From Podarcis liolepis (lineage: Eukaryota), in assembly GCA_965112155.1 (NCBI GenBank), contig OZ218103.1: 64,000 nucleotides of DNA; one strand, 5' to 3'. Positions 1-4,890 of this stretch are shown piece by piece; the first letter of the stretch is position 1; each line of letters opens with the position of its first letter. The notes under the pieces were generated by a model. The model saw only the letters and a list, made by a program, of their open reading frames with translations, did not search any database and was not told where the DNA came from. Made by a program: the position numbers and the translations under genes.

Positions 1-564
1 AATTTCTGCCTACCATGCAGCGAATGAATGAATGAATGAATGGCGCAGGTGGCAGTGGGGAATTATTTCCTTGAAGGAGACCAACGCATGGGAGATGGAG
101 GGCATATTATATCTGTGGCGAGCAGCGAGTGCCTAAGAGAGGAGGACTGCCCTTTGCCAGAGCGGAGCAGCCCCCGGGGAGCCTGTCTGGCTCATTGTCT
201 TCTCCCTTTTTCCCGCCACAGGTCCCGAGCAAGCCTCGCGCCCCCCTCCGCCGCCCCCTCCTCCTTCCCCCCTCTCTTTGGCGCCTTTTCCTTCCCGCCA
301 CGTCGAGTCTCTTTCCATTCTGACGGAGAGCCGAGGCGCGGGCTGGCGGCTGCGGCGCCGATTGGCCGGCTCGGCGCCGGTGGGCGGAGCTTCGCCGCTG
401 TTGGAGACCTGCCCGCCGGCTCTCCCCGGCTCCGCCCCAGCGCTGCTCCCTCCCACTTTACTACAGGCGGCTGAGGCCGGGGCCGTCGCGCCACACGGGA
501 GGGAGCAGGCTGGCCCGGCACGACCCCGCCCGCAGCTCCCGCCCGTGCCTCGGAGACGCCAACC

Positions 565-582
565 CAGCAGCAGCAGCAGCAG
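565..582 (+). repeat. (CAG)6 repeat in PIM1 5' leader
   Basis: cagcagcagcagcagcag read directly. Confidence 0.9.
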
Positions 583-641
583 CTGCCTCAGAGACGCCGC
601 CGCCGGTCCCGGCCTGCTTGGAACACGCGGACGGGGCGGGA

Positions 642-723
642 ATGTTGCTCTCCAAGATCAACTCCCTGGCCCACCTGTGCTCCGCGCCCGGAGGGGACCT
701 GCACCCGGTCAAGCCCCTGCCAG
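642..723 (+). CDS. PIM1: PIM1 Ser/Thr kinase, coding exon 1
   Basis: ATG at 642, [12 protein letters not shown]... is the PIM1 N-terminus; donor CAG|gtcagc; 82 nt. Confidence 0.96.
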
Positions 724-963: not shown

Positions 964-1070
964 GAAAAGAAAAGGAACCCCTGGAGAAGTTGTACCAGGT
1001 GGGCCCGCTGCTCGGCAGTGGCGGCTTCGGCTCGGTCTACTCGGGGACCCGGCTGGCGGATGGAGCTCCG
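964..1070 (+). CDS. PIM1: PIM1 coding exon 2 (Gly-rich loop)
   Basis: acceptor ccgtag|; [27 protein letters not shown]; donor |gtgagt; 107 nt. Confidence 0.97.
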
Positions 1071-1270
1071 GTGAGTGCTTGGCCGCGGGTGGATTGTGCC
1101 CCCATTTGCTCCCCATCGCTCTCCCAATTCGTTTTCCCCTCACCCCAATTTTCTCCAAAAAAATACCCCTTCCATTCATTCCAGCCCCCTTTCCTCCCTC
1201 CCCGCCACCCATGGCATTTCTTTCTACCGGTCCTGTTCGCTCACTCCAATTTTTTTTCCAATCTTTGTAG

Positions 1271-1321
1271 GTGGCGATCAAGCATGTGTCCCGCGACCGG
1301 GTTTCAGAATGGGGGGAATTG
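1271..1321 (+). CDS. PIM1: PIM1 coding exon 3 (VAIK lysine)
   Basis: acceptor ttgtag|; [17 protein letters not shown]; donor |gtaagt; 51 nt. Confidence 0.97.
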
Positions 1322-1475
1322 GTAAGTGTTTGGGCGGAGGAATGCCCCCGTGATGCTCGAGAGAATCTCTTTCAGCTTTCAGTGATCTGCCACAATGCAG
1401 GTCGATTGATTCTCCTATTCATGAATCCTGTTTTCTCTCTCTCCCCCCCCCCCCTCAAAAAAACCCACATTGCAG

Positions 1476-1842
1476 CCTGGTGGAACGAGGGTACCGATGG
1501 AGATCTTGCTCTTGAAGAAGGTTGGCTCTGGCTTTCGGGGCGTAATCCGGCTCCTGGATTGGTTTGAGAGGCCAGACAGTTTTATTTTGGTTTTGGAACG
1601 GCCTGATCCCGTGCAGGATCTCTTTGATTTCATCACGGAGCGGGGTGCTCTGCCCGAAGACTTGGCTCGCAGCTTTTTCCGTCAGGTTTTGGAGGCGGTT
1701 CGACATTGTCACAGCTGTGGGGTTCTGCACCGGGATATCAAGGACGAGAATATCCTGATTGACCTGAGCAGTGGAGAGCTCAAACTTATAGACTTTGGAT
1801 CTGGAGCGCTGCTCAAGGACACAGTGTACACTGACTTTGATG
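1476..1842 (+). CDS. PIM1: PIM1 coding exon 4 (hinge, HRD, DFG)
   Basis: [16 protein letters not shown]...[13 protein letters not shown] (PIM-type hinge Pro)...HRDIKDEN...DFGSG...YTDFD; donor |gtgagt; 367 nt. Confidence 0.97.
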
Positions 1843-3326
1843 GTGAGTCTTGTCAATTTCCATTCACTGCTTCGAGCCAGGGAATTTCCTCTTTGAAACA
1901 CTGTGTTCCCGGGGTTTGAGTGCTTTGCAGCAATGGAACATGTTCTTCCTCTGAGCTGTAGGACTTGTTCTTCTTATGAAATACATTTTATCCTGATTGC
2001 CTATTGCCTACACAGTTTCTGTTGATAGGCGATTTAACTCCAATCAACTGCTAGACTTTGCTAATGGTTTTTTTCTTATGAGCCTGAACCTACTGTCTTA
2101 TTTGTGGTGTGAAAATAGAAAGTGAAGGAACCAGGCAGTAAATATGTTGTAAATCTGAGTGGCTACTAATTCACTTGTGAGGGAGTGCAGAAGTGCAAGG
2201 CTGAATGTAAACATGTTTGCAGGCATACTGTTCAAAACCTTGAATGCTAATCAAAATCTGTAACTAAAGGAAAAATCTTAAAGTACGTGGATTTCTATCT
2301 TTCTAAAACTGATAGATGACTGAAAGGGTTTTGTAGTTTGTCCCTACGAAGAGCAGAGTACAAAAAAGCGGAGGAGGTAGTTACTAAGATCTGCTGCCTC
2401 TGCCACCTCACTAAATTAATCATTTTAAATGGAAAGTTGCTTTTCGTCATGGCATGAATGTTGTGAAATCTAATCTGGAAGAGATCTGTTTACATTCATC
2501 TCACTTTACCTTCCCTGCTAAGAAGCACAAATCAATAATTTGTTTAACAAAATGTGCATGTGGGGGAAAGGAGATTCAAGTATTGAAGATTTGAATAGAA
2601 ATGCGAGCTGCTCACAGACATTGTTTCCAGAAAACAAACCAAGCCTCTAGCCGTTGCTAACGACTCTTTTCATGAGCTGTTGACTTTCAAAAAATCACGG
2701 CTGGCTTTCAGTTTGGTTTGTTTGTGTGTTTTTTTGCCTCTGGGTTCCTGAGTGGCATGAGCTGCCTTGCATTTTTTGTTTTGTTTTTAATTTAACGGTT
2801 AATGACCAGGGGTGGGTTTGCTCCTCCCTCCGTAGCCCTCTTTCTTGCACAATTACTCAAGCTTCTGGTGCCCCCTGGTGGATCATGAGGATTTTTTTTA
2901 CAACCCAAAGTTTGTAAACAAGAGTCACATGTCTGGAAACCAGACTAGCAGCTCTGACCTCAGTATCCTTGCTTCCTGCCAGCAAGGAGGCGGGTGGGGG
3001 AGAGAGATCAGATACTGCAACAAAGGGTGCCAAGAGCTACTGCAGTGGTGCAAGTAAGCTGCATCTCAGCATCACCACATGCAGAACTAAAAGATAAAGC
3101 CACCCCATCATACTGTACATTCAATCTTTGTCAACATCTTAAGCAGCTTGTCTTCAGAAGTCCATGCCTGGTTTTTACTAACTGCATTGTCATAGTTGAA
3201 AACTAGTTCACTTGATGTTCCTGGTCCTTTGATCAGTGTGTCCAAGCGTTGAAAAAAATCAGCTCTGAGGTGATTTGTAGGAATTTTAAACCTCATGATG
3301 AGACCTTCCTCTTCTTTCTCTTCTAG

Positions 3327-3503
3327 GGACTCGTGTATATAGTCCTCCAGAATGGATTCGCTACCACAGGTACCATGGTAGATCTGCTGCCGTCTGGTCG
3401 CTTGGAGTACTGCTCTATGACATGGTCTGTGGTGATATCCCCTTTGAACATGATGAGGAGATCGTAAGAGGTCAAGTTTATTTTCGGCAAAGGATTTCTC
3501 CTG
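3327..3503 (+). CDS. PIM1: PIM1 coding exon 5
   Basis: acceptor ttctag|; [46 protein letters not shown]...; donor |gtaagt; 177 nt. Confidence 0.97.
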
Positions 3504-3974
3504 GTAAGTGTCTGCTGCTCTTATGAGATAGGGGATAACTTAGCGGACAGGGCTCATCCACTCTCTGCTTTGAGGGACAGTACTTGGAAGTATTTCTGAT
3601 GATCCCCAACATCTTTTATATTAGATATTACTGCTATATGCTAAAGCATGCAAGTAGCACTTCAGCTGCTGAGGGGAGGAAACCTAGAATTTGAAATTAA
3701 GTGGTGTGTTACCATCTTAATTGCAGAAGCAAGTGTTCCCAAAACACTGTTATTGGGCTTCCAGTCAGATTTTGAATCATTCCCTTGATGTCAAACTTGA
3801 AGCCAACACACCCTGGTATGAATAGCAAAGCAAACATTAGTTAACCATTGTTTCAGCCATGTAAAACAGTCTTGTTTTATAAGCAGGTTGAGATTTTGTT
3901 GCATCATCAGTGTCCTGTTTTGTAGATTCTCCTCAGCAATGCACCTATTTCAACTTTGTCCTTTCTTTTTGCAG

Positions 3975-4132
3975 AGTGCCAGCATCTTATTAAGTGGTGT
4001 TTAGCTCTGAGACCTTCTGACCGGCCATCCTTTGAAGACATTCTGAACCATTCTTGGATGCAAGAAGTTCTCCTGTCTCAGGAAACAGCTGAGATCCACC
4101 TGCACAGTCTACTGCACGAGTGTAGAAAATAG
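3975..4132 (+). CDS. PIM1: PIM1 coding exon 6 (to TAG stop)
   Basis: acceptor ttgcag|; [30 protein letters not shown]...[14 protein letters not shown]; exon total 942 nt = 313 aa. Confidence 0.96.
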
Positions 4133-4794: not shown

Positions 4795-4890
4795 AGTTTA
4801 TAATGTTTTTACTCCTGTTTTTTTAATTTATTTCTAGGGTTTTTTAATGGAATATCCTAACTTTAGGATCTTATTTATTTTATTTATGAA
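4795..4890 (+). promoter_or_regulatory. AU-rich element in PIM1 3'UTR
   Basis: U-rich tract with ATTTA pentamers, including TTATTTATTTTATTTA at ~4871-4886. Confidence 0.7.

Follow-up and report, generated by a model that had tools for sequence, protein, structure and literature searches.

A candidate in-frame CUG start within a predicted cap-proximal hairpin of the PIM1 leader in the lizard Podarcis liolepis

Mammalian PIM1 gives rise to PIM-1L, a 44 kDa isoform initiated at a CUG codon, according to the available parts of three reports (PMC13410110, PMC4640547, PMC4526774). Partner binding through an N-terminal PxxP and a membrane location are among the traits that define this isoform. PIM1 also lies in a stretch of 64,000 nucleotides from Podarcis liolepis (contig OZ218103.1 of assembly GCA_965112155.1; referred to as the window), where an initial annotation drew attention to a CTG codon located upstream of the main start codon and in frame with it. 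A reptile isoform resembling PIM-1L was proposed, together with dual initiation of PIM1 inherited from the amniote ancestor. The locus thus raises two questions: whether the CUG is used, and whether it corresponds to the mammalian start.

Translation of exons 1–4 gave a near copy of the PIM1 records of Podarcis and Zootoca, and exons 5 and 6 were also located. The gene is therefore the orthologous PIM1 kinase gene, with six exons and 313 codons plus a stop. Its ATG (642–644) has G at −3 and T at +4.

642..723, + strand: main PIM1 AUG with the coding portion of exon 1; the splice 723/964 is present in RNA reads
964..4132, + strand: PIM1 exons 2–6 (964–1070, 1271–1321, 1476–1842, 3327–3503 and 3975–4132), from the sequence

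The leader region has a single match in the lacertid genome assembly examined (G000), and no second leader copy was found there. Three PIM paralogues occur elsewhere in this assembly (C11:62136726, C2:104743186 and C18:5585847), with identities of 79, 74 and 68% in exon 4. The C11 gene is presumably PIM3-like and the C18 gene PIM2-like, and the gene on C2, which contains introns, is the fourth PIM kinase gene of the assembly. For the PIM3-like paralogue, the only one whose start was located, a stop lies 37 codons 5′ of that start. Rhineura has no fewer than seven additional pim-1-like records, on contigs of several sizes, and tortoises and turtles have many (extra-copy records P0002, P0005, P0007, P0008, P0113, P0114, P0116 and P0001); the last of these, a broken second copy in Crotalus, includes the leader. 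PIM1 thus seems to have been copied often in some reptiles, with no leader copy in G000. The 3′ UTR of PIM1 is AU-rich at 4820–4890 and holds several copies of ATTTA; such stretches have been described for mammalian PIM mRNAs (PMC4526774, in part).

The description of the upstream frame in the initial annotation was accurate. The PIM1 frame is free of stops back to TGA at 321–323, and the CTG at 510–512, with A at −3 and G at +4, lies 44 codons 5′ of the ATG and opens the peptide described, in which PPPVP is encoded at 597–611. The second in-frame CTG, at 471, is indeed weaker, with C at −3 and A at +4. The predicted long PIM1 would have a mass of ~39.7 kDa (4.3 + 35.4 kDa).

510..512, + strand: candidate non-AUG start CTG in strong context, in frame, 17 nt from the cap
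510..641, + strand: putative N-terminal extension of 44 codons (4.3 kDa), from the sequence; in frame in snake records
471..473, + strand: weak in-frame CTG (context score 0.6), 5′ of the main transcription start and out of frame in viper records
565..611, + strand: (CAG)6 and CCG triplet runs encoding poly-Ala and PPPVP, variable among lacertids and snakes (sequence, reads and contigs)

Some of these features are expected by chance. All three frames are open over 475–641 (nearest stops at 321, 472 and 134), and when the transcribed leader was shuffled 20,000 times, 70% of the products remained open in frame; the open frame therefore carries no weight and was dropped as evidence. The PxxP motif was dropped likewise, since it arose in 64% of 10,000 shuffles of the extension peptide; the single PxxP of the lizard extension fits neither the class I nor the class II SH3 pattern. 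Among 20,000 shuffled leaders, 9.1% contained an R-N-N-CTG-G in frame and ≥20 codons 5′ of the AUG, and 4.9% contained an in-frame CTG whose context belongs to the top-scoring class. The excess of the CTG510 observation over chance is modest. The 9% figure favours a reading in which CTG510 is not measurably used, 493–641 serves only as a structured 5′ UTR and its in-frame CTG is a chance occurrence, a reading that we consider unlikely; the 4.9% figure speaks for a start that has been selected.

The strongest argument for initiation at CTG510, as proposed in the initial annotation, is its context. A screen that tested every non-AUG context with a reporter in mouse pre-B cells, scaled to 100 for the consensus AUG (PMC5778536, in part), gives the CTG510 context a score of 28, as compared with 1.1 for the CUG of human PIM1 and 0.6 for lizard CTG471. 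By our own count from the available data of that screen, 30 of the 256 CUG-G contexts score at least 28. The claim of a strong context is thus borne out, and a codon among the strongest for CUG argues against complete disuse.

Whether CTG510 is transcribed was judged from four raw RNA runs of two studies, all from an organism (A) close to, though not necessarily the same as, the species of the window, with differences from the window sequence at 594 and 597; 6–12% of each run was sampled for mapping to 241–1140. Runs X21 and X22 are single-cell runs from one study, and X23 and X24 bulk runs from the other. The loose 5′ ends in X21 and X22 bear the template-switch tag of Smart-seq3 (bioRxiv 10.1101/817924, in part). 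Of the 310 tagged ends listed at 488–495, 236 lie at 493, 39 at 495, 20 at 488 and 15 at 492, a tally that omits a row of six reads at 983 and seven further rows of loose ends.

488..495, + strand: transcription start cluster with its main site at A493, from template-switch tagged 5′ ends

With a median of 23 bases, the loose part is one base longer than tag, UMI and GGG together, and the genomic base 5′ of 493 is C. One extra G is a sign of a capped 5′ end. In the bulk runs, depth rises from 0.5–1.2 at 451–480 through 8–11 at 481–510 to 27–40 at 511–540, and in the tagged runs the depth at 451–480 is ~1% of that at 511–540. The main 5′ end at 493 therefore places CTG510 within the mRNA, 17 nt from the cap, and transcription does not begin only downstream of 510, a finding that would have spoken against the proposed start. 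By the same mapping CTG471 lies outside ~99% of reads, 5′ of the main start, and was ruled out as the main start codon. Contigs of organisms B and D extend 5′ to 412 and 456, respectively, so rarer upstream starts may exist. A few RNA reads apart from the PIM1 transcript cover 241–300, with differences at 250, 253 and 259; these may derive from another locus or from upstream transcription.

The sequence 5′ of the start cluster contains the following elements.

361..365, + strand: ATTGG, 128–132 nt 5′ of the main 5′ end
382..389, + strand: GC-rich element
457..463, + strand: AT-rich element at −36 to −30 relative to the main start
402..481, + strand: promoter, largely untranscribed, with conservation in snakes equal to that of the leader (viper peptide matches)

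We take ATTGG to be a reverse CCAAT-box-like promoter element and the element at 382..389 to be GC-box-like; the AT-rich element would be TATA-like, as judged by its position. A stretch similar to it precedes mammalian PIM1 (PLYSW and PLLLAAG in the readings of mammal records). A promoter scan used a bacterial model and was uninformative for the lizard PIM1 promoter. Farther upstream, ~200 nt 5′ of the start, 275–305 matches stork, hummingbird and P0003 readings at 9/9 residues and the viper in two runs of five residues. The stretch is thus conserved across sauropsids and is likely a regulatory element.

The position of the cap also bears on the predicted RNA setting of CUG510. The first 58 nt of the mRNA are predicted to fold as one stem-loop at 494–547, and 1 of 200 shuffles folded as well.

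494..547, + strand: predicted hairpin with CUG510 in its upper stem (−34.5 kcal/mol, z −3.56)

Pair probabilities in the main stems are 0.97–1.0. Repeats gave z −2.8 and −3.2, the best among 58-nt windows across 301–667 (63 rows, with 493 counted twice), and three stretches beside 494–547 folded no better than shuffles. The leader hairpin had no Rfam match at E 1. The predicted hairpin begins one base past the cap (+2); as predicted, its stability and position fall within those of cap-proximal inhibitory hairpins (≤−30 kcal/mol, within ~12 nt of the cap). According to the accessible text of PMC5766168, translation is strongly inhibited when stems of −25 to −30 kcal/mol lie close to the cap.

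This setting bears on how far CUG510 could be used. AUG recognition is robust from a leader of ~20 nt, codons nearer the cap being reached less efficiently (PMC8593136, in part), and leaders of ≤40 nt favour leaky scanning (PMC13219423, in part). A position 17 nt from the cap, inside a predicted −34.5 kcal/mol stem, is what a codon passed over entirely would show, as is the weak structure 3′ of CUG510, where folding allows only a −8 kcal/mol hairpin. Less efficient recognition near the cap is nevertheless still recognition, which weighs against complete disuse. The level of initiation at CUG510 could lie anywhere from nil to large.

Conservation among squamates was examined next to these predictions. 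The frame is kept in three lacertid contigs, in all three snake records that reach the Leu and in one partial copy from the amphisbaenian Rhineura, where the last 17 residues of the extension are preserved; relatives thus retain the frame. The snake records are the Crotalus gene (P0110, 47-codon extension), the broken second Crotalus copy (P0001) and a snake-like record (P0111, 50-codon extension); each keeps the frame, the Leu and the Ala at +4, and in this small sample of protein records the Leu is visible and the codon is not. The squamate sample is also biased, because an extension is visible solely where a record has an open frame and an ATG somewhere upstream. The first 16 and the last nine residues of the lizard extension are identical in the viper gene. 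Bases 510–512 are unchanged in the lacertid reads and in the covering contigs, those of B and D (C begins at 525). A gap of 3 nt occurs in the contigs of B and C and is absent from D, and all squamate indels between the CUG and the AUG keep the frame.

Other searches added little. A pattern scan of metagenome contigs with exon 1 gave no matches, and a search of short protein fragments gave no candidate. The metagenome protein scan yielded 80 loci at 45–66% identity, none of them amniote PIM1, and was set aside. The four matches of the representative protein search were P0001, P0006 and two unrelated low-complexity proteins.

The retention of Leu, frame and Ala in 3/3 snake records, the 16/16 identical N-terminal residues, the frame-keeping indels and the presence of a PxxP in both lizard and snake versions, together with a context far above that of human PIM1, could be taken to indicate a selected squamate long PIM1, started at the CUG, similar to PIM-1L in role by convergence as a second isoform that differs in location or partners, and with the cap hairpin setting the ratio of long to short forms. 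We regard this as a real but lesser possibility. Exact matches to P0110 occur not only at 489–557 (frame 0), where 23 residues are identical in snakes and seven of them precede the CUG, but also at 374–388 (frame 2), 402–440 and 444–458 (frame 0), and 458–481 (frame 2). In the untranscribed promoter the agreement with snakes is 13/13 at 402–440, 5/5 at 444–458 and 8/8 at 458–481. As the promoter is as conserved as the leader, residue identity does not demonstrate selection on a protein. The indels are weak evidence, because slippage in the GCA and CCG runs, where they lie, changes the length in steps of three. The lacertid changes within the extension, at 594, 595 and 597, each alter a residue, whereas the single lacertid change in exons 1 and 2 (1016) is silent. 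The PxxP, frequent by chance and of neither SH3 class, differs between lizard and snakes, and PPPVP is absent from vipers. Nor do the snake records, which give the Leu but not its codon and are annotated only where the frame is open, add much weight. On the other side, three frame shifts relative to the viper records fall between 388 and 489, just upstream of the CUG (the one between 481 and 489 affects CTG471), and this pattern, with frame-keeping indels after the CUG, also fits selection on a protein.

The most conserved block of the leader, 489–557, is spanned by the predicted hairpin. The lacertid contigs show no change within 494–547 and are therefore uninformative on pairing. The conservation of 489–557 is likely due to constraint acting on the promoter DNA and the RNA structure and not on the extension peptide, and the long form of ~39.7 kDa is probably a tolerated by-product.

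The second question, whether CTG510 corresponds in reptiles to the start of mammalian PIM-1L, so that dual initiation would be ancestral to amniotes, was addressed by comparing protein readings. None of eight eutherian extensions resembled the lizard extension above shuffles (z −0.7 to 0.5), and against a eutherian profile of ten sequences 175–180 of 500 shuffles scored as well. A PDB search with the lizard extension gave no match at E 10, including human PIM-1L (5tur_A, 404 aa). Human PIM-1L indeed begins MPHEP, in agreement with the initial annotation, but the RHDP/PHEP similarity did not exceed that of shuffles. A collinear DPA...RP.L..D.P.A resemblance to human residues 18–45, likewise not above shuffles, and the upstream promoter element common to mammals would also point towards a shared start. 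A turtle LPHQP, 44 codons before the AUG, would add to this; it was tried as a homologue of the mammalian start and was not above shuffles (five eutherians, z −1.3 to 1.0). The lizard extension matches the turtle record weakly near the AUG (12/2000 shuffles and, in a second test, 0/500).

The arrangement of the leaders argues against a common start. The distance from promoter to Leu is 19 codons in the lizard but 46–55 in titi, pig and dog (the 21 codons of the colugo come from a model that appears to skip sequence), and the CAG run lies 3′ of the CUG in the lizard and 5′ of it in eutherians. Human PIM-1L has 91 added residues, and its start is in frame in 11 of the 18 mammal records examined. 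In our own reading, the PIM-1L start stretch is in another frame in the dolphin Sousa (P0033), whereas the bowhead keeps it; it also seems shifted in the Myotis model. PIM-1L may have been lost in some mammals, or these gene models may be wrong.

At the protein level, none of ten bird records has Leu at the lizard position, contrary to expectation for an ancestral start. These represent about six lineages, five of the records being pigeon-like; motif-less partials (P0017, P0076, P0096 and P0171) were excluded. The first in-frame Leu after the start motif falls at codons 14–39 in 10/10 birds versus codon 7 in 3/3 snakes. The stork has three residues (9 nt) between matches to 481–501 and 528–542, where the lizard has 26 nt containing the CTG. 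The leader frame of pheasant, hummingbird and warbler is not that of the other seven birds, and by our own reading the in-frame Leu codons of the hummingbird arise from a shifted Ala run, which would favour a chance origin of the in-frame CTG. It is thus highly improbable that CTG510 is a counterpart of the PIM-1L start inherited from the amniote ancestor. Nothing in these comparisons of protein readings supports a start shared by lizard and mammals, although a distant homology of the leaders could exist. Of the proposed PIM-1L-like isoform, the in-frame CUG inside the mRNA stands, while a homologous extension and a homologous position across amniotes do not.

Turtle, petrel, stork, pigeons and one other record (P0125, P0003, P0014, P0183 and P0217) have a common frame over the ~35 codons before the PIM1 AUG. 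The turtle leader reading gave z 6.6 against the petrel and z 9.1 against P0003. These birds have an in-frame Leu ~31 codons upstream, whereas pheasant, hummingbird and warbler have lost the common frame. The leader may hold another, separate start, or its UTR may simply be conserved.

The lizard leader shares with PIM-1L the gene, an in-frame upstream CUG, a GC-rich leader and an unstructured-looking extension rich in Pro, Ala and Ser with a PxxP. It differs in the length of the extension (44 residues, predicted, versus 91) and in the location of the CUG, 17 nt from the cap versus nt 158–160 of the annotated human mRNA (PMC4526774, in part), as well as in the context score, the undetectable sequence similarity and the side on which the CAG run lies. 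As in the CUG extensions of MYC, FGF2, BAG1 and HCK, there is a purine at −3 and G at +4, and the score of 28 falls within their range of 11–46 in the available screen data; theirs are annotated non-AUG starts, whereas the lizard start is predicted and lies inside a cap-proximal stem. The predicted stable stem at +2 in a GC-rich PIM leader resembles the cap-proximal inhibitory hairpins in the sources available, and differs from them in holding an in-frame CUG and in belonging to no matched Rfam family.

According to the available text of a survey in mammals (bioRxiv 10.1101/2022.05.02.490320), most non-AUG extensions supported by ribosome data are without phylogenetic support, and such unselected extensions provide the base rate for the reading preferred here. 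PIM1 is not named in the main text of that survey or of PMC3105428, as far as these were available, and their supplements may list it. No report of a CUG start in reptile PIM1 was found in a literature search covering few subscription journals. PMC11900008, available in part, served as general background only.

We give about even credence to the reading that the leader is capped by a hairpin and carries a CUG of independent origin, restricted to squamates, from which a minor PIM1 product, longer by 44 residues, likely leaks. The mRNA begins mainly at 493, and its first 55 bases are predicted to form the stable hairpin. This hairpin, at +2, would slow loading of the 43S complex and thereby make PIM1 translation dependent on eIF4F. 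Once it is opened, a minority of complexes would initiate at CUG510, the strong context being offset by the cap distance of 17 nt and by the want of a strong hairpin behind the CUG, and most would scan past it to AUG642. The leader would thus act as a cap-proximal brake on translation, for which GC-rich PIM leaders and ‘weak’, eIF4E-dependent transcripts provide a precedent (PMC4526774, in part). As far as sequence comparison goes, the long lizard PIM1 appears to be a predicted minor product unrelated to mammalian PIM-1L.

A stronger proposal, that squamates evolved their own CUG-initiated long PIM1 with its start in a cap hairpin controlling both the amount and the form of PIM1, is tentative and somewhat doubtful. 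If true, a long PIM1 with a non-AUG start would have been retained, or invented anew, in different lineages out of leader sequences that are unrelated. Should the long form be real and selected, one oncogene would have acquired a CUG extension on two occasions from sequences without common origin, which would suggest that possession of a second PIM1 form matters and not the sequence of the extension; the leader would also be a small natural example of a cap hairpin that gates a start codon. As a by-product, on the other hand, CUG510 would be another of many leaky non-AUG starts. Either way, the mapped transcription start site and the predicted hairpin are a useful annotation of squamate PIM1.
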